This document shows, piece by piece, positions 39,349 to 49,999 of a DNA stretch of 64,000 bases. The stretch comes from Gammaproteobacteria bacterium (lineage in GTDB: Bacteria; Pseudomonadota; Gammaproteobacteria; Eutrophobiales; Eutrophobiaceae), in assembly GCA_963422205.2 (NCBI GenBank), contig CAXMWX010000001.1, positions 160,001-224,000 of the forward strand, given 5' to 3'. The translations under genes were made by a program, and so were the position numbers. Below the pieces are notes generated by a model. The model was not told the DNA's origin, ran no database searches, and saw nothing but the letters and a program-made list of their open reading frames with translations. Within the stretch, counting starts at the first letter, position 1, and the number at the start of each line of letters is the position of its first letter.

Positions 39349-39625
39349 GTCGCCTAAAGCAAAGACATGGTTCTGAAGAGATAACAGAAATTTTTCGTAT
39401 TTTTGCCTGAAAATATTTTGCATCGGAAGGTGATGGCTTTGCTTTTTGTTGGTCAAGCGGTTTTATCTTCCTCCTTCCGTTATTCATGGGTTGCCCATGG
39501 CGTTCTATGTGTTCCATTCGGGGCAGTGGGTTGTCTTTTGGCTGGCGAGTAGAATAGCAGATATAATCGAAAATGCGCCTTTGGCAGATAAGGTCATCGC
39601 ACCAATTAAGATAAAGAAAATACCT

Positions 39626-41335
39626 ATGGCTAACAAACAACAGAAATCGGACTTGCGAGGGAAAGAGCCGCTCGCAAAACAGCTTTGGAGGGCGGCAGAT
39701 AAGCTCAGAAAGAACATCGATGCCGCAGAGTACAAGCACGTTGTTCTGGGGTTAATGTTCCTGCGTTATATCTCCGATGCCTTTGAAGCGCTCTATCAAC
39801 AGCTCAAAGCAGGCGAAGGCGAATATGCCGGCGCCGACCCGGAAGACAAAGACGAATACAAGGCGGAAAATGTCTTTTTTGTGCCAAAGGAATCGCGCTG
39901 GCGTCACCTGCTCAACGAAGCGAAGAAACCCACCATTGGCAAGCGCATTGATGAGGCCATGGATGCCATCGAAAAGGAAAACCCTGCCTTGTTGAAAGGG
40001 GTGCTGCCGAAAGTCTATGCCCGCCAAAACCTGGATCCGGTCAGTCTTGGCGAATTGCTCGACCTGATCGCCAATATCGCCTTGGGCGATACCAAACAGC
40101 AAAGCGCCGATGTGCTCGGCCATGTGTTTGAGTATTTCCTCGGCGAATTTGCCCTGGCAGAAGGCAAGAAAGGCGGGCAATTCTACACGCCAGCAAGTGT
40201 CGTAGGCTTATTGGTGGCAATGCTGGAACCCTATCAGGGCCGCGTGTTTGATCCCTGCTGTGGTTCGGGCGGTATGTTTGTGCAGTCGGAAAAGTTCGTC
40301 CTGGAGCATCAGGGAAGAATCAATGACATTTCCATCTACGGACAGGAAAGCAACCAGACCACCTGGCGGCTGGCGAAAATGAACCTCGCCATACGCGGCA
40401 TCGACAGCTCACAGGTAAAATGGAACAATGAGGGCTCATTTCTCAACGATGCCCACAAAGACGTCAAAGTCGATACCATCATCGCCAATCCGCCGTTTAA
40501 CGACAGCGACTGGAGCGGTGATGTATTGCGTAAAGACGGGCGCTGGCAGTTCGGTGTACCGCCACAAGGCAACGCCAACTATGCCTGGATTCAGCACTTC
40601 CTGTACCACCTCGCCCCCGGCGGACAAGCGGGTTTTGTGCTGGCAAAAGGGGCCTTGACCTCCAAATCCTCCGGGGAGTGGGAGATACGCAAAAACCTGA
40701 TTGAAGCCGACCTGATCGACTGCATCGTCAACCTGCCCGCCAAACTGTTCCTCAATACGCAGATCCCCGCCTGCCTTTGGTTTATGCGAAGGAATAGAAA
40801 CCACCCCGCCCTAAAGGGCACCCCTCCATCGGAGGGGAATGTACCGCCTCGCCTTTCAGGCACCCCGCCAATGGAGGGGAATGTACCACCCCGCCTTTCA
40901 GGCACCCCGCCACCGGAGGGGAATCGAAGCAAGGAGATTCTTTTTATTGATGCCAGAAACCTCGGCCACCTCATCAACAGACGCACCAGGGAATTTTCAA
41001 AAGCAGACATTCAAACGATTGCCGACACCTACCACAACTGGCGCCATTCCCCTCCCTCGGAGGGGTGGCAGCCGTCAGAGACGGCTGACGGGGCGGTTCA
41101 TGAGGGCAACTACGAAGACATCCCCGGCTTTTGCAATTCCGCTTCCATTGAGCGAGTCAAAGCGCTCGATTACGTCCTCACGCCGGGGCGCTATGTGGGG
41201 CTGGCCGGGGAAGACGATGACTTTGATTTTGCCGAACGATTCGCCCAACTCAAAGCCGAGTTTGCAACACAATTAAAAGAAGAAAGCAGGCTCAATGAGA
41301 TTATTGTTGCCAACCTGGATAAAATGAAACCATGA
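39626..41335 (+). CDS. hsdM: Type I RM methyltransferase subunit
   Basis: [24 protein letters not shown] (motif I), ANPPF (motif IV), LTPGRYVG. Start is ATG 39626. Confidence 0.96.
40800..40924. repeat. Three tandem 42-43 bp hairpin repeats in frame inside hsdM
   Basis: Unit ACC(A/G)CC(C/T)CGCC..GGCACCCC(T/G)CC-nnn-GGAGGGGAAT, translating as (GTPPxEGN)x3. Confidence 0.9.
41046..41098. repeat. Same repeat family in the opposite orientation, in frame inside hsdM
   Basis: ATTCCCCTCC-CTC-GGAGGGGTGG-CAGCCGTC-AGA-GACGGCTG-ACGGGGCGGTT. Confidence 0.88.
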
Positions 41336-41754
41336 ACATAGACACACAATTTCTCGCCCGTTGCCTTGCCGCATTGGAAAAAGCCATGCAGCAGCTACCA
41401 CAGTTTACCGAAGCCGACATTGAATACGACATCTACCGGGCGGCCATTGTCAAAGAGTTTGAGATTGCGCTGGAACAAAGTGGCAAGCTGTTAAAAAAAC
41501 GCCTGCAACCCTTTTTTCACACCCACAAAGCGGCGGACAGGCTTCACTTCAAAGACATCTTCCGTCAGGCCGGGCAACACGGGCTGCTGGACATAGACGA
41601 GGTGGAACGCTGGCTGGCATACCGCGACAACCGAAACGCCACCGCCCATGATTATGGCGCGGCGCTGGCGCAACAAACCCTGCCGCTGATGCCGCAATTT
41701 ATCACCGATGCCAAAAAACTGGTCAGCATACTGCAAGCCAACCATGATCATTAG
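41332..41754 (+). CDS. HEPN-domain toxin (HI0074-like), copy 1
   Basis: [17 protein letters not shown] and the RX4HXY motif RNATAHDY; ATGA overlap with the hsdM stop. Confidence 0.85.
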
Positions 41755-42070
41755 AGCAAAAGACCGGCAACGCATACAGCGCATCGCGGGCGAGGTATTC
41801 ACCGCACCATTGGAAATATGGGCCTATGGCAGCCGGGTCACACACCGGGCGCACCCATGCAGCGATTTGGATCTGGTCATCCGCACCGAAAGCCTGAGGC
41901 CGGTGGATAGGGGGCAGTTGCTGACGTTTACAGAGTTGCTGCAAGAATCCAACATCCCGTTTATTGTGCAGGTATTCGACTGGGCAGAGCTGCCCGACTC
42001 TTTTCGGCAAAACATCCTGAACCATTACCAGGTATTTTTTTCTTCCCTGCCGGAAAAGCACAGTGTATGA
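41744..42070 (+). CDS. Minimal nucleotidyltransferase (MNT) antitoxin, copy 1
   Basis: GS-X10-DXD motif [16 protein letters not shown]; [13 protein letters not shown]. Confidence 0.87.
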
Positions 42071-42288
42071 GCGGAGAGGTGCAAAAAATTGTATCAGGTA
42101 GAGACGCAACATTTTGCGTCTCTACAATGGTCACAAATTGCGACCGGTTCGATTCTTTGAGGTCACAATCTGTCACCTCAAAAGGGCGCGGGGGAAGACG
42201 ATATCTTCCCTATGCCTTCACCGAGCAGGGCATAGCCATGCTTTCAGCCGTGTTGCGTAGCGAGACGGCCATCACCAAAGCCATGTAA
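42067..42288 (+). pseudogene. Chimeric remnant: HsdS-like tail, a REP, and an ORF6N-domain fragment
   Basis: MSGEV start, REP at 42098, then [39 protein letters not shown], typical of ORF6N; truncated at both ends. Confidence 0.75.
42098..42125. repeat. GTAG-type REP palindrome
   Basis: GTAGAGACGCAA-CATT-TTGCGTCTCTAC, perfect 12-bp arms. Confidence 0.92.
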
Positions 42289-42308
42289 CATAAAGAACCT
42301 TATAAATT

Positions 42309-42716
42309 ATGAACAACGACAACCGATGGAAGCAACGCTTTCAAAACTTTGAAAAATCTTACCGGGTATTGCTGCGAAGGGTAGAAGAATATCAAACAGA
42401 CCCCAATTCAGAAGCCTACCAAATGGCACTGATCCAGGGGTTTGAAATACTACAGGAACTCAGTTGGAAAACCTTAAAAGACTATCTGGAAAATGAAGGG
42501 GTGCCGGTAAAACCCAATCCCAAAGACACTATTAGAAACGCTTTTCAAAATGAACTTGTTGCCCATCCCGAAGCCTGGATAAAAAGCATAGAAAACCGCC
42601 ACCGCACCAGCCACACGTACAATGAGAAAATATTACATGAAACCGTACATTACATTGCTGAAGATTTTTATCCCATTGTGCGCGACCTGTATGATCAATT
42701 AAAAGCCAGGCTATGA
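42309..42716 (+). CDS. HEPN-domain toxin (HI0074-like), copy 2
   Basis: RWKQRFQNF, LIQGFE..ELSWKTLKDYL and the RX4HXY motif RHRTSHTY. Confidence 0.88.
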   Translation: MNNDNRWKQRFQNFEKSYRVLLRRVEEYQTDPNSEAYQMALIQGFEILQELSWKTLKDYLENEGVPVKPNPKDTIRNAFQNELVAHPEAWIKSIENRHRTSHTYNEKILHETVHYIAEDFYPIVRDLYDQLKARL

Positions 42717-44167
42717 AATACGGTCTGTCCGCTCAGCAACTACAGGAAATCACCGGCATTCTCGCCGCGTATGAGGAAGTAGAAACCGCCGTGCTGTTTG
42801 GCTCACGGGCCATAGACACCTACAAAGAAGCCTCCGATGTTGATATTGCCATCAAGGGCGAAAAGGCCGACTTTGGGCTTGCCCTAAGCATAAAAGACCA
42901 CCTCGAAGAAGAAACCTACCTGCCCTTTTTCTTTGATGTTATTTCCTATCAAAGCATTAGCAATGAGGAACTGAAAAAACATATCCGCACCAAAGGCAAA
43001 GTGATGTATCGGAAAAGCATGAAAGAATGGCGGGAAATACGATTAGAAAGGTATATCAAAACCAATAAAAAAAGTATTGGTATGGATTTTCCGTATCAAG
43101 AAATATTATATCTGGATACAGGTTCAATAACGAAAAACAAAATTGATAAATTACAAGAATTTTCATTAACGAATGCGCCCAGTCGAGCAAAAAGAATAGT
43201 TGAAGAGGAGGATATTATCTATTCGTCGGTAAGACCTAATCAGCTTCATTATGGTTTCATTAAAAACCCAAAAGATAATCTGGTAGTCTCTACAGGCTTC
43301 GTTGTTATTTCTTGTGATAAAGAATTTCTTGAACCAAAATACTTATACTATTTTCTCGCATCTGAAAATTCTACTGAATATTTACATTCAATAGCGGAAG
43401 CCTCAACCTCAGCATATCCTTCTTTAAAGCCAAGGGATATTGAAACTTTAGAAATCCTACTCCCACCCCTGCCCGAACAAAAAGCCATCGCCTCTGTCCT
43501 TTCCAGCCTGGATGACAAAATCGACCTGCTCCACCGCCAAAACCAAACCCTCGAACAACTGGCAGAAACCCTCTTCCGACAGTGGTTTGTGGAAGAAGCG
43601 GATGAGGGATGGGGGGAAGGTTGTTTAGGAGATGTTATTGAAATATTTGATAGTAAAAGAATACCTCTTTCAAAAATGCAAAGGCTCGAAATGAAGATTG
43701 GAAAGATGTATCCCTATTATGGAGCAGCCAAAATAATGGATTATGTGAATGATTTCATTTTTGATGGTGAATACATACTATTTGCTGAAGACGGAACTGT
43801 AAAAACTGATGAAGGTTATCCTGTTCTTCAATATGCAACAGGTCAATTTTGGGTCAACAATCATACCCATATTTTGAGAGCCAAAAAGCCTTATTCCAAC
43901 TTCTTCATTTGGTGTTATTTGGTTAAAAAAAATATTGAAAAATATATCACTGGGGCAGTCCAACCCAAAATAAACCAGTCCAATCTTAAGTCCATCGATT
44001 TTCCAAAGTTTCCAGGAGACTTAGTAGAAAATTGGAATGTTGAAACTGAGCCGATATTTGGCAAGATAAATCAAAATAAAACTCAGATAAAAACCATAAC
44101 CAACCTAAGAGACACCCTGTTGCCCAAACTCATGAGCGGCGAAGTGCGGGTGGAAATGGAAAATTAA
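42713..44167 (+). CDS. hsdS: MNT antitoxin fused in frame to the type I RM specificity subunit
   Basis: Residues 1-102: FGSRAIDTYKEASDVD, LPFFFDVI. From MKEWRE (43019): two TRDs, PPLPEQKAIA..LDDKI, LRDTLLPKLMSGEV. No stop between the two parts. Confidence 0.92.
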   Translation: MKYGLSAQQLQEITGILAAYEEVETAVLFGSRAIDTYKEASDVDIAIKGEKADFGLALSIKDHLEEETYLPFFFDVISYQSISNEELKKHIRTKGKVMYRKSMKEWREIRLERYIKTNKKSIGMDFPYQEILYLDTGSITKNKIDKLQEFSLTNAPSRAKRIVEEEDIIYSSVRPNQLHYGFIKNPKDNLVVSTGFVVISCDKEFLEPKYLYYFLASENSTEYLHSIAEASTSAYPSLKPRDIETLEILLPPLPEQKAIASVLSSLDDKIDLLHRQNQTLEQLAETLFRQWFVEEADEGWGEGCLGDVIEIFDSKRIPLSKMQRLEMKIGKMYPYYGAAKIMDYVNDFIFDGEYILFAEDGTVKTDEGYPVLQYATGQFWVNNHTHILRAKKPYSNFFIWCYLVKKNIEKYITGAVQPKINQSNLKSIDFPKFPGDLVENWNVETEPIFGKINQNKTQIKTITNLRDTLLPKLMSGEVRVEMEN

Positions 44168-44752
44168 ATGATTAGGAAAATAGAACTTTTCTTTTTATCA
44201 CTTTGGTTATTGTTTGTATTGATTATCATCATTACGGCAAAAATTCCTTTTTGCTTTTCAGAAGTTTGTGGGTTTGTTGGATTCGAATATCTCATTTTGA
44301 ATAATATCATCTCTCTGTTATGCATAATCTCATTAATTATTGGGGCTGTTGCTTATTTTGATTTCATTTATCAGATGAAGGGATCGCCCGAGTTATCTTT
44401 TAAGATAACTAAAATTGAAAAGATTGATTATGAACATTTGATCTTTCTTACGACATATATAATACCATTGGTATGCTTCAAATTTGAATCACTTAGATAC
44501 CAGATAGTGTTTTTTTTGATAATTGTGGTGATTGGAATAATTTATGTCAGAACTGACCTCTTTTATGCAAATCCAATACTGGCAATGCTTCAATTTCGAA
44601 TCTACAAAGTGGATGGAGAATTTAGAAATAATGAAACACGTGAAGCTAGAATATTAATTTCCAAAGAAAAACTAAGTAAAGAAGATAATGTCAAGTACTT
44701 GAAACTTGATGACCGAATATATTATGCATTTAGAGTAAAGAAAAATGACTAA
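44168..44752 (+). CDS. kwaA: Kiwa anti-phage membrane protein
   Basis: Four TM segments, YEHLIFLTTYIIPL, LFYANPIL..FRIYK; AT-rich; upstream of a KwaB-like gene. Recognised from family motifs, no search run. Confidence 0.8.
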   Translation: MIRKIELFFLSLWLLFVLIIIITAKIPFCFSEVCGFVGFEYLILNNIISLLCIISLIIGAVAYFDFIYQMKGSPELSFKITKIEKIDYEHLIFLTTYIIPLVCFKFESLRYQIVFFLIIVVIGIIYVRTDLFYANPILAMLQFRIYKVDGEFRNNETREARILISKEKLSKEDNVKYLKLDDRIYYAFRVKKND

Positions 44753-45728
44753 AGAAGAACTTAACCAGGCACTTCAGTTTATCAATAACCCACAAGGTGA
44801 ATTACAGATAATCTTATATACATTATTTAAGAATGGAGGAGATATAAAGAAAATAGATATACGAGTAGATGATCTTCCACAAATCCGTGAAATATTTATT
44901 CAGGGCATAAAGTCTTATGTTGTGGAAAAAGATGATCATGTTGTCCTGCCACTTTCTACAGCCGATGAAAGAGTGAACTGTTTTTATACCTATGACCTTG
45001 AATTGCCAGATGAACTGACATATTTAGAAAGTGTTATTGGCAATGATGATTTAGACAACTTTAACTTTCAAGATGATCAGTTATCTGAAATTGATGCACT
45101 TATTGTAATCCTCGCTGATAATGATTTTGAAATTTCTTTATTCAAAAAATTAACACCGGTAGAAGTAGTAGGCAGAGGTGGATATATGTTATGGAAATCA
45201 AATGAGAGATTTGAGCGATTTGATGAACAGCTATTGCGAATTACTCCTCGATTTCAAGTAATTCGAGTAAATAATGAGGTAGTCATTATTGATTTAAATA
45301 CAATAGAGAAAAGCCTTGGGTTCCATGATGTAATCACTAGGGAGGCTAGTGCAAGCCTTGATGTTATTAGACAAATGGAAATTGTAAGTAATATTGAGAG
45401 TTTAGAAGAACTGGTTACGGATGTCAGTTTTGCAAGAAAGTTAACAAGAGTGGCGAAAAATTCACCTGTCATTCAGAATAACATACCAAATACAGATATT
45501 ATCGCCTTTTCAAAAAGGTATCCCATTACAAGAAATAAGATGAGATATAATGAAGATGAAAGTCAATTTAATTTGGATACACGTGTTTCTAAAGACTTAT
45601 TTATCAAAATACTGAATGATGACCTCCTTACTTCAGAACTGACAAGGCTATATTATGACAGTCTGGCTAAAGATGGTGTTGGAATTGAAAATGTAGATGA
45701 AAACCAAGATGCTGATAATACCCTATGA
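44745..45728 (+). CDS. kwaB: Kiwa anti-phage protein (DUF4868-like)
   Basis: LSTADER, acidic 327-aa protein ending FIKILNDDLLTSELT..Y; overlaps kwaA. Confidence 0.8.
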   Translation: MTKEELNQALQFINNPQGELQIILYTLFKNGGDIKKIDIRVDDLPQIREIFIQGIKSYVVEKDDHVVLPLSTADERVNCFYTYDLELPDELTYLESVIGNDDLDNFNFQDDQLSEIDALIVILADNDFEISLFKKLTPVEVVGRGGYMLWKSNERFERFDEQLLRITPRFQVIRVNNEVVIIDLNTIEKSLGFHDVITREASASLDVIRQMEIVSNIESLEELVTDVSFARKLTRVAKNSPVIQNNIPNTDIIAFSKRYPITRNKMRYNEDESQFNLDTRVSKDLFIKILNDDLLTSELTRLYYDSLAKDGVGIENVDENQDADNTL

Positions 45729-45808: not shown

Positions 45809-45841
45809 AAGGTTGGGCTGATGAGCGGTTGGGGTGATGTG

Positions 45842-45887
45842 GTAGAGACGCAAAATTTTGCATCTCTACAGGATATTTCGTCTCTAC
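45842..45887. repeat. GTAG-type REP plus one extra right arm, upstream of the RAYT
   Basis: GTAGAGACGCAAAATTTTGCATCTCTAC followed by AGGATATTTCGTCTCTAC. Confidence 0.9.
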
Positions 45888-46070
45888 GGGGGTATCGGAT
45901 ATTCATAATACATTGCACCAGAAACCCAAAAAAACAAAATAATGACCGGCCTTTACAAAAACAAATACCGCATCGCCTCTGCCCGCCACCCGGCTTGGAA
46001 TTATGGATGGAACGCTGCGTATTTTGTGACGATCTGTACCAAAGACCGGGTATGTTGGTTTGGGCAAATC

Positions 46071-46152
46071 GTAGAGACGCAAGATTTTGCGTCTCTACAG
46101 GATCTTGCGTCTCTACAAAATGTTGCGTCTCCACAGGGTATTGCACCTCTAC
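46071..46152. repeat. REP plus three tandem 18-bp right arms, in frame inside the RAYT
   Basis: GTAGAGACGCAAGATTTTGCGTCTCTAC, AGGATCTTGCGTCTCTAC, AAAATGTTGCGTCTCCAC, AGGGTATTGCACCTCTAC. Confidence 0.9.
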
Positions 46153-46337
46153 CACATGAACCACAAATGAAATTATCAGAAATGGGTGAAATCGCCCACC
46201 AATGCTGGTTGGAAATACCACAACATTTTCCGTTTGTGAAATTGGGAAATCACATTATCATGCCCAATCATGTACACGGCATTGTGATCATTGATAAACC
46301 GGATGATGGATTCGGTGAAAACCATGATTTACACAAC

Positions 46338-46383
46338 GTAGAGACGCAAAATCTTGCGTCTCTACAGGATGTTGCGTCTCTAC
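46338..46383. repeat. REP plus one 18-bp right arm, in frame inside the RAYT
   Basis: GTAGAGACGCAAAATCTTGCGTCTCTAC followed by AGGATGTTGCGTCTCTAC. Confidence 0.9.
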
Positions 46384-46627
46384 CGTCCAAACCATCAGAA
46401 ACCAACAAACCTAAAAACCAATTTGGCCCGCAATCCAAAAACCTGGCATCCATCATCCGCGGGTTCAAAACAGGGATCACCAAAAATGCCAGACGCATTG
46501 CCCCGGAATTTGCCTGGCAACCCCGATACCATGACCATATCATCCGAAATGAAAAATCCTATTATCATATTTCAGAATACATTGTGAATAATCCCCCGAA
46601 ATGGACAGAAGATGAATTCTATGCCCC

Positions 46628-49600
46628 ATGACCCGCTTAACTGAATCCGCCATCGAAAATTTCGCCATTGAACTGTTTGAACACTTGGGCTACCAGTACC
46701 TCTACGGCCCGGACATTGCCCCATTCCCCTCCTCTGGAGGGGTGGATTTCATCGAAGATGGAAGACGAGGTGGTGCAGACACTCGCGAAAGCTACAGCCA
46801 AGTCCTGCTCCTCAATCGCCTGCGAGAGGCCATTGCCAGAATCAACCCCGGCATTGCCCATGACACCCGGCAGGAGGCCATCAAGGAAATTCAGCGCCTG
46901 CATTCCCCGGCATTATTGACCAACAATGAGGCTTTTCATCGTCTGCTTACCGAAAGCATTCAGGTGACGTATCAAAAAGACGGTCAGCAAAGGGGCGATT
47001 TGGTCTGGCTGATTGATTTTGAAAACCCAGGCAACAATGATTTTGTCGTCACCAATCAATACACCATCATAGAAGATGGCAACAACAAACGCCCCGACAT
47101 AATATTGTTCATCAACGGTATCCCGTTGGTGGTTGTCGAGCTTAAAAACGCCGCCGATGAAACTGCAACTGTAGAGTCAGCATTCGACCAAATAGAAACC
47201 TACAAAGCCACCATTCCAAGCCTGTTTACTTACAATGCGTTTTCCATCATTTCCGATGGTCTGGAAGCCAAAGCCGGAACCGTATCTTCTGAAATCAGTC
47301 GCTTCATGGCATGGAAATCTGTGGACGGCAAAAAAGAAGCCTCTCATCGGGTCAGTCAGCTGGAGACCTTGATCCACGGCATGTTGAACAAGGAAACCCT
47401 GATTGATGTGATCAGGCATTTCATTGTCTTTGAGAAGTCCAGAAAGGAGGACGCTGAATCGGGGCAGATCACCATCAACAGCATAAAAAAACTGGCCGCC
47501 TATCATCAATACTACGCCGTGAATCGCGCCATTGACTCAACCCTGCGAGCGACAGGGTACAGGTTAGAAAGAAAGACACCTGTAAGCAGCGTACAGGAAT
47601 CACCGGAGAGTTACGGTGTGCCGGGGGTAAAGTCACAGCCATCGGGCGATAGAAAAGGCGGAGTCGTCTGGCATACGCAGGGAAGTGGAAAGTCGCTTTC
47701 CATGGTCTTTTATGCAGGCAAAATCGTGCAGGCCCTCCATAACCCCACAGTCGTCATGATTACAGACAGAAACGACCTGGACGATCAGCTGTTCGATACC
47801 TTTGCCGCCTCCGCGCAATTACTCAGGCAGGAACCCAAACAGGCCGCCGACCGCAATGATCTCAAGGCAAAACTGAAAGTCGCTTCAGGGGGTATTGTTT
47901 TCACCACCATTCAGAAATTCCAACCAGAAGAAGGCCATAGTTACGAGACGCTTTCAGCGCGAGACAACATTGTGGTCATCGCCGATGAAGCCCACCGCAC
48001 CCAATACGGCTTCAAGGCAAAACATGTCGATGCCAGGGACGCAAGCGGCCATGTCATGGGGACGAAAACCCGCTATGGTTTTGCCAAGTACATGCGTGAT
48101 GCCTTGCCCCATGCCACTTATCTTGGCTTTACCGGCACACCGATTGAAAATGCCGATGTCAACACGCCGGCCGTTTTCGGAAATTATATTGATGTCTATG
48201 ACGTAGCCCAGGCCGTGGAAGATGGCGCTACCGTTCCCATCTATTATGAAAGCCGCCTGGCCAAGGTCAATCTCAGTGATGAGGGCAAACAGTTGGTGGC
48301 AGAGCTTGAAGAGGAACTGGAACAGGAAGAGCTAACCGAAACCCAAAAGGTCAAAGCCAAGTGGACGCAATTAGAAGCGCTTATAGGCAGTGAAAATCGC
48401 CTTGCCACGGTAGCAAAAGACATGGTTCAGCATTTTGAGCAGCGACAGGAAGTCTTTACCGGCAAGGGCATGATTGTGACCATGTCCAGACGCATCGCCG
48501 CAGACCTCTATGCAGAAATCATCCAGCTCAAACCCGAATGGCATTCAGATGATCTCGACAAGGGTGCGATTAAAGTGGTGATGACTTCCTCATCATCCGA
48601 TGGCCCCAAGATGGCAAAACACCATTCCACCAAGCAGCAACGCAGGACTCTGGCAGAGCGCATGAAAGACCCGGACAATGCACTGAAGCTGGTTATTGTT
48701 CGGGACATGTGGCTGACCGGTTTTGATGTGCCCATGATGCACACGCTCTACATCGATAAACCCATGCAAGGCCACAACCTGATGCAGGCTATAGCGCGGG
48801 TGAACCGGGTCTATCAAGACAAGCCCGGTGGCTTGGTCGTGGATTATCTCGGCATTGCCTCGGACTTAAAGCAAGCGCTGTCCTTCTATGCCGATGCCGG
48901 CGGCAAAGGCGACCCGGCCATAGCACAGGAACAGGCCCTGTCCTTGATGCTGGAAAAACTAGAAGTCGTATCTCAGATGTACAATGAATGCCCCTCCCGT
49001 GCAGGAGTACCCGAAGGACGGGGCGGTAAATTCCCCTCCTCTGGAGGGGTGGATTTCATCGCAGATGAAAGACGGGGTGGTTTCGCTTACCAAAATTACT
49101 TTGATGCAAACACCTCAGAAAAGCTATCCATCATCCTGGCAGCAGCAGAACATATTTTAGGGCTGGAAGACGGGAAGAAAAGGTACATCAACCAGGTGAC
49201 TGCCTTGTCAAAAGCCTTTGCCATCGCTATCCCGCACGAGCAGGCCATGCAGGTGAAAGAGGAGGTTGGCTTCTTTCAAGCGGTAAAAGCCAGACTGGCC
49301 AAGTTTGATTCGAGCGAACCAGCAACCGGCTTAGGCAGAACGGATAAGGCCATAGAGACGACTATCCGTCAGGTGGTGGACAACGCCCTGGTCTCCGAAA
49401 AAGTGGTGGATGTATTCGATGCCGCAGGGATCAAAAAGCCCGACATCTCTATTCTTTCAGAGGATTTCTTAATGGAATTGAAAGGCATGGAACACAAGAA
49501 TGTGGCGCTGGAGGTGCTGAAAAAGCTGCTCAATGACGAGATAAAAAGTCGCGCCAAAAAGAATCTGGTCAAGAGCAAATCATTGTTGGAGATGCTTGAG

Positions 49601-49999
49601 AACTCGATCAAAAAATATCAAAACAACATTCTCACCGCCGCAGAGGTCATAGACGAACTCATCAAACTGAGCAAAGACATTGTCAATATGGACAGTGAAG
49701 CCCGGCAACTTGGCCTGTCAGATTTCGAGTACGCTTTCTACACCGCCGTGGCCGACAATGACAGCGCCAGGGAGCTGATGGCAAAAGACAAACTGCGCGA
49801 GCTTGCTGCCATTCTCACCGAAAAAGTAAAACAAAATGCCTCGATAGACTGGGCGATTAAAGACAGTGCCAAAGCAAAACTGAAGGTGATTATCAAAAGA
49901 ACCCTGCGCCAATATGGCTATCCGCCGGATATGCAAAAGCTCGCCACTGAAACCGTACTGAAACAGGCCGAGATGATTGCAGATGAGTTGGCAGCGTAA
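46628..49999 (+). CDS. hsdR: Type I RM restriction subunit
   Basis: RPDIILFINGIPLVVVELK nuclease motif, WHTQGSGKS, DEAH, FTGTP, MWLTGFD, QAIARVNR. Confidence 0.96.
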   Translation: MTRLTESAIENFAIELFEHLGYQYLYGPDIAPFPSSGGVDFIEDGRRGGADTRESYSQVLLLNRLREAIARINPGIAHDTRQEAIKEIQRLHSPALLTNNEAFHRLLTESIQVTYQKDGQQRGDLVWLIDFENPGNNDFVVTNQYTIIEDGNNKRPDIILFINGIPLVVVELKNAADETATVESAFDQIETYKATIPSLFTYNAFSIISDGLEAKAGTVSSEISRFMAWKSVDGKKEASHRVSQLETLIHGMLNKETLIDVIRHFIVFEKSRKEDAESGQITINSIKKLAAYHQYYAVNRAIDSTLRATGYRLERKTPVSSVQESPESYGVPGVKSQPSGDRKGGVVWHTQGSGKSLSMVFYAGKIVQALHNPTVVMITDRNDLDDQLFDTFAASAQLLRQEPKQAADRNDLKAKLKVASGGIVFTTIQKFQPEEGHSYETLSARDNIVVIADEAHRTQYGFKAKHVDARDASGHVMGTKTRYGFAKYMRDALPHATYLGFTGTPIENADVNTPAVFGNYIDVYDVAQAVEDGATVPIYYESRLAKVNLSDEGKQLVAELEEELEQEELTETQKVKAKWTQLEALIGSENRLATVAKDMVQHFEQRQEVFTGKGMIVTMSRRIAADLYAEIIQLKPEWHSDDLDKGAIKVVMTSSSSDGPKMAKHHSTKQQRRTLAERMKDPDNALKLVIVRDMWLTGFDVPMMHTLYIDKPMQGHNLMQAIARVNRVYQDKPGGLVVDYLGIASDLKQALSFYADAGGKGDPAIAQEQALSLMLEKLEVVSQMYNECPSRAGVPEGRGGKFPSSGGVDFIADERRGGFAYQNYFDANTSEKLSIILAAAEHILGLEDGKKRYINQVTALSKAFAIAIPHEQAMQVKEEVGFFQAVKARLAKFDSSEPATGLGRTDKAIETTIRQVVDNALVSEKVVDVFDAAGIKKPDISILSEDFLMELKGMEHKNVALEVLKKLLNDEIKSRAKKNLVKSKSLLEMLENSIKKYQNNILTAAEVIDELIKLSKDIVNMDSEARQLGLSDFEYAFYTAVADNDSARELMAKDKLRELAAILTEKVKQNASIDWAIKDSAKAKLKVIIKRTLRQYGYPPDMQKLATETVLKQAEMIADELAA
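46723..46774. repeat. CCCCTCC/GGAGGGG hairpin repeat in frame inside hsdR
   Basis: ATTCCCCTCC-TCT-GGAGGGGTGGATTTCATCGAAGATGGAAGACGAGGTGGT, translating as FPSSGGVDFIEDGRRGG. Confidence 0.88.
48988..49082. repeat. Two tandem copies (the first degenerate) of the same repeat, in frame inside hsdR
   Basis: Translates as CPSRAGVPEGRGGK-FPSSGGVDFIADERRGG; the second copy is nearly identical to 46723-46774. Confidence 0.88.

Follow-up and report, generated by a model that had tools for sequence, protein, structure and literature searches.

Type I restriction–modification (RM) systems and toxin–antitoxin pairs composed of a HEPN toxin and a minimal nucleotidyltransferase (MNT) have been well studied, and HEPN genes are known to occur in RM operons. 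In the type VII pairs HepT–MntA of Shewanella oneidensis and HEPN–MNT of Aphanizomenon flos-aquae, the MNT AMPylates the tyrosine of the RX4HXY motif of the toxin, and the titles of PDB entries 6M6U, 7BXO and 7AE9 agree with this. The link between an RNase and an RM enzyme is, to our knowledge, understood for one case only, PrrC. The present analysis concerns a gene that encodes an MNT and a type I specificity subunit, HsdS, as a single chain (MNT::HsdS). The gene is part of the hsd locus of a Gammaproteobacteria bacterium of the family Eutrophobiaceae, and lies in a stretch of 64,000 nucleotides, called the window below, that corresponds to positions 160,001–224,000 of the forward strand of contig CAXMWX010000001.1 (assembly GCA_963422205.2). 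All coordinates are given as window positions unless a locus identifier is named.

The best sequence matches of solved structure come from Legionella and comprise the HEPN protein 8XDJ (6.8e-21 to HEPN2, the putative toxin encoded directly upstream of the fusion) and the MNT chain 8XEH_E (1.1e-11 to the MNT domain). In Legionella pneumophila, lpg2920/lpg2921 form a type VII HEPN–MNT toxin–antitoxin pair, in which the MNT poly-AMPylates Y105 of RX4HXY and is a working antitoxin without the C-terminal α4 helix; it binds only the HEPN tetramer, and that weakly, the modification is incomplete, and the genes of the pair share 8 bp (Jin et al. 2024, PMC11586414). The cassette of the window is like this pair (8XDJ, 8XEO, 8XEH) in its overlapping HEPN and MNT genes (8 bp there, 4 bp here), in its RX4HXY motif and in its short MNT; however, the Legionella MNT is free, whereas here the chain continues into HsdS exactly at the α4 site. 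Nor is the Legionella pair described as part of an RM operon; PMC11586414 uses the words 'restriction' and 'phage' 0 times. The MNTs of Shewanella and Aphanizomenon are free as well, but carry the α4 docking helix and usually lie 5′ of HEPN, whereas the window has the HEPN gene in front and a fused MNT; MNTs of the 6M6U/7BXO/7AE9 type match the fold of the MNT domain with E-values of 4.7e-04 to 1.2e-03. The Haemophilus influenzae proteins HI0073/HI0074 (1NO5, 1JOG) belong to the same Pfam families, with a target-normalised template modelling score (TM-score) of 0.83 for 1NO5_B and a HEPN match of 1.3e-04 to 1JOG, but are free-standing and have no HsdS fusion.

PrrC, encoded inside the EcoprrI type Ic hsd operon, is thought to be a second line of defence once restriction has been disabled (Anantharaman et al. 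2013). Like PrrC–EcoprrI, the window contains a gene for a predicted HEPN-family RNase within a type I hsd operon. PrrC is, however, a large protein that combines an ABC-ATPase with HEPN and is silenced by binding the RM enzyme, whereas the putative toxin of the window is a single domain of 135 residues, without the N-terminal ABC-type NTPase of PrrC according to Pfam, and is paired with a tethered antitoxin of the modifying kind; the HsdR of the window is HindI-like, not EcoR124-like. The same authors report that HEPN families cluster with RM operons, that HEPN domains of the PF08780/DUF86 type are occasionally fused to MNT and methylase domains, that HEPN fuses to nucleases, helicases and ATPases, not methylases, that the MNT lies nearly always 5′ of HEPN (the order is reversed here), and that RM-associated HEPN proteins may act by analogy with PrrC (Anantharaman et al. 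2013). The MNT::HsdS architecture is not mentioned in the searchable text of that paper, figures and supplements aside; the legend of its Figure 5 defines 'RM_TRD', and a related operon may be drawn there. The accessible parts of Makarova et al. 2013 and of the 2026 BREX survey mention HEPN–MNT modules, not an MNT–HsdS fusion. A full-text literature search returned no paper describing such a fusion, in line with an earlier note on this DNA, whose author knew of no characterised example. The fusion is apparently unstudied; its parts all come from families already described, and HEPN toxins embedded in RM operons are an established theme.

The fused frame and its upstream HEPN gene

The ORF (open reading frame) list and the Pfam searches indicate a single open frame of 484 residues (42713–44167, +), in which an MNT (residues 1–102) is followed by a type I HsdS with two target recognition domains (TRDs). 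Pfam assigned PF18765 (Polbeta) to residues 11–102 (6.9e-15), with a second nucleotidyltransferase-part match to PF01909 (3.3e-06), and PF01420 (Methylase_S) in two stretches (3.2e-29). The frame directly upstream (42309–42716, +) encodes HEPN2, a predicted RNase toxin of 135 residues that matches PF08780 (NTase_sub_bind), a HEPN family, at 2e-33, and the two frames share the four bases ATGA at 42713–42716. Both motifs were read from the sequence and are complete: the GS-X10-DXD of the MNT consists of G30-S31 (42800–42805) and D42-V-D44 (42836–42844), and the RX4HXY of HEPN2 is R97-HRTS-H102-T-Y104 (42597–42620). The part of the frame that encodes the MNT domain, a predicted AMPylating antitoxin, spans 42713–43018 (+). 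It is followed by a junction (43019–43030, +) with a linker of about six residues, an internal ATG (M103, 43019–43021) and the residues MKEW, with W106 invariant among the relatives compared, and then by the HsdS part (43031–44167, +; stop at 44165–44167), to which the PF01420, PDLC03068 and fold matches belong.

The PADLOC Specificity_I model PDLC03068 aligned over positions 1–400 of 403 with residues 103–483, so the HsdS part is full length. AlphaFold2 modelling of the 484-residue protein gave a mean predicted local distance difference test (pLDDT) score of 90.4 and a predicted template modelling (pTM) score of 0.73; the model contains an α/β MNT domain (residues 1–100), two TRDs and long helices at residues 253–294 and 435–475, with a junction of six residues and a pLDDT of 74 for residues 101–110. 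The secondary structure of the model places TRD1 at 43031–43462 (+), the central conserved helix of HsdS at 43469–43594 (+), TRD2 at 43613–44008 (+) and the C-terminal conserved helix at 44015–44137 (+). In a Foldseek search, the C-terminal 380 residues matched the solved HsdS chains 5YBB_D (8.8e-21), 3OKG, 1YF2, 1YDX and 2Y7C_A, and the N-terminal 100 residues matched 8XEO_B with a target-normalised TM-score of 0.93 and a root-mean-square deviation of 1.3 Å over 101 columns. The C-terminal α4 docking helix of MntA-type antitoxins is absent from the AlphaFold2 model, where the MNT fold ends at strand 96–100 and is followed by the HsdS strand 107–110.

The features expected of an HsdS are thus found together, namely two Methylase_S TRDs, long central and C-terminal helices, and hsdM and hsdR encoded on the same strand, as are those of an MNT antitoxin, a Pol-β-type fold with GS...DxD and an overlapping HEPN gene with RX4HXY. 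The 484-residue MNT::HsdS frame is genuine. The earlier note had described an intact MNT and a two-TRD HsdS in one frame, coupled by ATGA to a HEPN gene with an intact RX4HXY; the ORF list, Pfam, PADLOC and AlphaFold2 agree on the fusion, and the overlap and the toxin motif were confirmed in the sequence itself. It had also advised checking with reads that no stop or frameshift occurs near 43010–43020, and none was found, the contigs of two runs crossing the junction without a difference. These Logan contigs, from two runs of one study, match 42250–43488 letter for letter and without a gap, at word depths of 6 and 561; the runs share one study and may be the source sample, and are therefore not independent support. 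The HsdS part would be expected to join HsdM and HsdR in M2S1 and R2M2S1 complexes and to give methylation and restriction their sequence specificity, and HEPN2 is predicted, from its family and motif, to be a toxic RNase whose Tyr104 is AMPylated by the MNT.

Recurrence of the MNT::HsdS architecture

The MNT::HsdS architecture is conserved and widespread. The combination of PF18765 and PF01420 was found in 19 of the 119 other matches listed for the full-length query, at 39–59% identity, under names that include Nitrospirota, Desantisbacteria and an uncultured gammaproteobacterium. A further PADLOC model, PDLC03138 (Specificity_I, 485 positions), covers both domains, which means that the architecture already stands, unremarked, in reference sets; the N-terminus of this model also matches the free-standing MNT1 of the window. 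With nothing but the MNT domain as query, an exhaustive HMMER search of 1.84 billion representatives at 50% identity (cut-off E ≤ 0.001) gave 2321 hits. Among the closest 60 of the 2321, 36 have at least 400 residues with the MNT at residues 1–101, 15 have 150–399 residues and nine have fewer than 150, while only five of the 50 hits ranked 101–150 reach at least 400 residues; the MNT lineage nearest this one is therefore mainly fused.

Species-representative genomes were scanned with an alignment of eight MNT domains, and the 80 loci returned were classified by script; since all eight domains were taken from fusions, the sample leans towards this clade. An MNT::HsdS fusion is encoded at 37 of the 80 loci, and these fused loci bear 17 phylum labels. 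An upstream ORF matching HEPN2 or HEPN1 and containing RX4HXY is present in 33 of the 37 fused loci, the exact 4-base overlap with the upstream HEPN in 32, a same-strand hsdM upstream in 35, and an hsdR match inside the flank of approximately 4 kb in 23. Among the fused loci, a HEPN match is missing from L007, L030, L037 and L069, although L030 has an upstream ORF of 118 residues with the motif. The 43 unfused loci comprise 38 without a downstream HsdS match and five with a separate MNT and hsdS further downstream. Three of the 38 (L031, L055, L058) have hsdM but are cut by, or lie near, a contig end, and the other 35 are without hsdM; many of the latter are cyanobacterial, with one clade of 16. 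An upstream HEPN was found in 29 of the 43 unfused loci. Where a type I operon context allows the state to be read, the fused form is present in 37 loci and a separate MNT in five.

The motifs are preserved along with the architecture. When the second locus of this genome, described below, is counted with the 37, GS is present in 38/38 fusions and DxD in 37/38 (L032 is without DxD), and R97, H102 and Y104 of HEPN are invariant in 35 aligned sequences (33 cassettes, HEPN1 and the second locus). The comparison proposed in the earlier note, a search for proteins with NTP_transf and Methylase_S domains and for a conserved upstream HEPN gene, has thus come out in favour of its idea, both among the listed homologs and among the scanned loci. 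The fusion is neither unique to this assembly nor a read error, being present in 37 other genomes and at a second locus here, and being covered by contigs with 0 differences. Some MNTs of the clade lie in frames that fit neither a free MNT nor a complete HsdS fusion (L028 1169–2143, 324 residues; L056 4001–4855, 284 residues; L003 4001–5086, 361 residues) and that could be truncated fusions, proteins with half-size HsdS or fusions to something else.

The genome itself contains a second cassette, whose MNT is 36% identical to that of the window and lies within a frame of 572 residues (G000:C3:441579–443653; L002 1127–3201; L083 7579–9653). This MNT::HsdS is preceded, with a 4-base overlap, by a PF08780 HEPN of 119 residues with the motif RNKMSHVY. 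The gene order of the second operon is hsdR (EcoR124-type), YhcG/DUF1016, HEPN, MNT::HsdS, GmrSD and hsdM, and the operon belongs to a different type I family with a gene order different from that of the window operon. When the genome was searched with the MNT domain of the window (E ≤ 0.001), two matches came back, its own copy and the second cassette; this query revealed no close paralogue that is free-standing. The HsdS of the second cassette contains a repeated Ser/Gly-rich peptide (..PSATLRQRSGGESDSSTAVGE..), present in the MNT–TRD1 linker as well as in the central part. MNT1 belongs to a third MNT lineage, which is also fused to HsdS in other organisms: MNT1 is 41% identical to the MNT domain of the fusion P0091 and 39% identical to that of P0106. 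The HEPN→MNT::HsdS unit thus acts like a module, turning up repeatedly in divergent versions.

Among 24 genomes of the same family, a match at E ≤ 1e-5 was found in one, and it is weak (E 3.9e-7, 34% identity); the single genome of the same genus that was searched (92% complete) gave no cassette match at E ≤ 1e-5. Vertical inheritance was considered and rejected, as the cassette is sporadic among the relatives searched and not lineage-conserved. A tblastn search of PLSDB with residues 1–140 returned 85 records; none reached 60% identity, 0/85 covered at least 80% of the query, and no fused junction was therefore found. The matches are free MNT–HEPN pairs, 77 of them in Piscirickettsia.

Probable coupling of toxin control to the specificity subunit

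On balance, the fusion is probably a selected one, in which a type VII antitoxin serves as the N-terminus of HsdS and functionally couples control of the toxin to HsdS. HEPN2, as the putative RNase toxin with RX4HXY, would be translated first, and the ATGA overlap would couple the translation of MNT::HsdS to that of HEPN2; the MNT domain would bind HEPN2 oligomers, AMPylate Tyr104 and silence the RNase. With the antitoxin made only within HsdS, HEPN2 would be neutralised only while the specificity subunit is made and kept, and toxin control would depend on the synthesis, stability or conformation of that subunit. The earlier note had likewise suggested that neutralisation could depend on the presence or integrity of the RM complex. 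Such a tie to the RM system may provide a backup layer of abortive infection, analogous to PrrC with EcoprrI, an addiction module for the hsd locus, or both. The link between an RNase and an RM enzyme would be written into the protein, with the antitoxin as a part of the specificity subunit, which gives a testable model for the coupling of restriction to abortive infection or addiction; it may also explain why one class of short MNTs is without the docking helix that other MNT antitoxins need. Because annotation pipelines label these proteins 'restriction endonuclease subunit S', the toxin–antitoxin layer goes unnoticed.

Several points weigh against this coupling. The toxicity of HEPN2, its AMPylation and the assembly of the fusion into an RM complex are predictions made from sequence. 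A complex prediction with two copies of HEPN2 and MNT residues 1–102 lends weak support: it scored 0.35, whereas the best of 3 controls scored 0.00, its runs share 95% or more of their contacts, and the partner pLDDT is at least 89; the mark applied is reached by 58 of 80 solved complexes and by two of 110 mismatched pairs, but at scores of 0.60 or less it is reached by only seven of the 80 solved complexes and by both of the mismatches that pass, and since a similar complex has already been solved, the pass may reflect the predictor's familiarity with it. AMPylation is covalent, so the loss of the MNT would not at once re-arm toxin that has already been modified. The absence of fused copies from all 85 PLSDB records gives no support to an origin in plasmid addiction and does not favour the addiction reading. 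The proportion of 37 fused loci in 80 describes this MNT clade, not MNTs at large, because the query was built from fusions only. Moreover, the five RM-embedded cassettes with a separate MNT gene indicate that fusion is not obligatory, the interleaving of fused and free forms in the MNT tree suggests that fusion and fission are easy, and the ATG retained at 43019 would still allow a separate HsdS to be made in the window.

The main alternative, although it is unlikely, is one of neutral convenience, in which the MNT gene and hsdS, adjacent in one operon and coupled in translation, were fused without cost by loss of a stop codon; each domain would then work as it does alone, and an ordinary toxin–antitoxin pair would sit in a defence island beside an ordinary HsdS with no functional coupling. 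The tree of MNT domains agrees with it to a degree, as fused and free forms interleave with 18 parsimony changes; however, this tree is built on 100 columns, 41 of its 80 inner branches lack resolution, no more than two of the changes are forced by well-supported ones, and it is therefore too poorly resolved to decide between a single origin and repeated fusion. Free MNTs are up to 72% identical (L008, L010, L011), linkers across the fusions range from none to approximately 45 residues, and the separate MNTs of the five RM-embedded loci fit the same picture; the 38 of 43 unfused loci without a downstream HsdS match, 35 of them also without hsdM, imply that the pair works without HsdS. Against neutrality, the fused state dominates in the RM context (37 against five), the fusion persists across 17 phylum labels as well as three divergent MNT lineages, and the cassette is found in two unrelated type I operon layouts of one genome. 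The junctions are also mostly tight: in most fusions the last MNT strand is joined straight to the tryptophan (..YRKG-WRE..), and the HsdS initiator methionine is lost, which suggests an integrated protein.

A more specific form of coupling, which we regard as doubtful, is a PrrC-like guard, built independently from a type VII pair, in which HsdS would serve as the platform for sensing the state of the RM enzyme. As an MNT without α4 would need a second docking surface, and TRD1 follows it nearly without a linker, binding and AMPylation of HEPN could be gated by the state of the type I enzyme. The states to be distinguished would be free, DNA-bound, engaged on unmodified DNA, blocked by a mimic of the Ocr/ArdA type, and degraded, and interference of a phage with restriction, or overload of restriction, would release the RNase. 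The covalent nature of AMPylation argues against a guard in its simple form, as do the interleaving of fused and free MNTs and the five RM-embedded cassettes with a separate MNT; in addition, we know of no effect of DNA mimics on the N-terminus of HsdS, which does not favour it either. If true, such a guard would be widespread, given the 17 phylum labels found here.

An improbable alternative, confined to the window, is that functional HsdS starts at the internal ATG (43019), with the long frame serving mainly for the MNT and the tethering being of little consequence here. Translation from 43019 gives MKEW.., an N-terminus like those of free HsdS relatives, which start with MSEW or MTEW (W106 is invariant in 62 aligned sequences), and a weak purine-rich GGAAAAG lies just upstream. 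This stretch is, however, a poor Shine–Dalgarno match, an argument that is not decisive because the HEPN2 start is also without a clear Shine–Dalgarno sequence. No stop lies between MNT and HsdS, so ribosomes starting at 42713 all make the fusion, and the family does not depend on a junction ATG: between MNT residue 96 and the tryptophan, an ATG is present in only five of the 38 fusions, GTG or TTG without ATG in 17, and none of the three codons in 16. In most of the family, HsdS would therefore arise only as a fusion protein. The possibility raised in the earlier note, that HsdS is produced only from the internal ATG, accordingly fails for the family, where 33 of the 38 fusions have no such ATG, and would apply, if at all, to the window, which keeps the ATG at 43019.

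It is very improbable that the MNT acts on another target, for example by nucleotidylating HsdM, HsdR or DNA in order to regulate restriction, with HEPN as a substrate-binding partner. The Pfam name of PF08780 is still 'nucleotidyltransferase substrate binding protein like', and HEPN was first proposed as a substrate-binding subunit of the MNT (Anantharaman et al. 2013); solved homologous pairs, however, AMPylate the tyrosine of RX4HXY (PMC11586414; PDB titles 7AE9, 6M6U, 7BXO), and this tyrosine, with the catalytic arginine and histidine of HEPN, is invariant in the alignment described above. An error of assembly or sequencing, be it a missed stop codon, a frameshift or a chimeric join, is rejected: although the public contigs end at 43453–43501 with a loose end, so that the join of TRD1 to TRD2 runs through a repeat, the MNT–TRD1 junction lies well inside the contigs of both runs, and the same in-frame junction occurs in the 37 other genomes and at the second locus of this one.

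Surroundings of the cassette in the hsd locus

The GC content is approximately 0.6 in the flanking housekeeping genes, 0.43–0.47 in HEPN2 and the MNT, and 0.29–0.38 in the TRDs and the Kiwa genes, and the hsd locus is accordingly a mosaic defence island. The first gene of the locus, hsdM (39446–41335, +), encodes the type I methyltransferase subunit (PF02384 in two stretches, 6.3e-102; PF12161, 7.6e-26), and its true start is probably downstream of the listed one because the HsdM_N domain starts at residue 76. Immediately after hsdM sits another pair, HEPN1–MNT1 (41332–42070). HEPN1 (41332–41754, +) is a HEPN toxin-like protein of 140 residues with RNATAHDY as its RX4HXY (PF08780, 9e-20; PF01934 HepT-like, 1.7e-05), and MNT1 (41708–42070, +; PF18765, 4.2e-08) is a free-standing MNT with 24% identity to the fused one; its start is uncertain, and the in-frame ATG at 41744 would give an 11-base overlap with HEPN1. 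Next comes a fragment of an ORF6N-domain gene (42067–42288, +), only the C-terminal part of which is present (positions 50–86 of 86 of the PF10543 profile), and which is probably a scar between the two cassettes. The fragment and the REP (repetitive extragenic palindromic) element after MNT1 suggest that an older cassette was cut off on arrival of the HEPN2–MNT::hsdS–Kiwa block.

A complete Kiwa pair, with a GC content of 0.29–0.34, lies between hsdS and hsdR, and the ATG of kwaA follows immediately after the hsdS stop. PADLOC searches identified kwaA (44168–44752, +; KwaA, 6e-75) and kwaB (44745–45728, +; KwaB, 1.4e-116), and Pfam PF16162 is listed for the pair. With 0/80 other loci of the clade matching KwaA or KwaB, the insertion of Kiwa is a peculiarity of this window. 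Downstream of kwaB, an ORF of 229 residues (45942–46631, +) resembles, as judged by eye, a REP-associated tyrosine transposase (RAYT); it is broken or flanked by REP palindromes, and 0 Pfam families matched it. The locus is completed by hsdR (46628–49999, +), which encodes the type I restriction subunit with a HindI-like C-terminal domain (PF11867, 7.7e-123; PF18766, 4.1e-77; PF04313, 1e-53).

The contigs of both runs mentioned above end within the central conserved region of HsdS, at 43453–43501, where a loose end of 255 nucleotides leads to a different upstream sequence; the sample therefore has another sequence with that segment, be it another hsdS allele, a second system or another organism. 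Among the repeat families at the locus, D2 and D4 occur in hsdM and D2 in hsdR. A palindromic element (..CCCCTCC..GGAGGGG..) is present at 40817–40900, 41046–41097, 46723–46774 and 49030–49081; it inserts in frame in hsdM (approximately 40817–41097, with a 42-nucleotide tandem) and in hsdR (at 46723 and 49030), adding Pro/Gly-rich peptides. The REP-like palindrome, with the core GAGACGCAA..TTTTGCGTCTC, is found in four copies (42097–42126, 45841–45870, 46070–46099 and 46337–46366), which correspond to eight strand matches against 0.01 expected. Three of the four lie in or beside the RAYT-like ORF, and the copy at 42097–42126 lies inside the ORF6N fragment. Of the loci retrieved from other genomes, a single one has the palindrome: L006, from a metagenome-assembled genome of Sedimenticolaceae, which has three copies, one of them translated into the C-terminal tail of the L006 MNT::HsdS.

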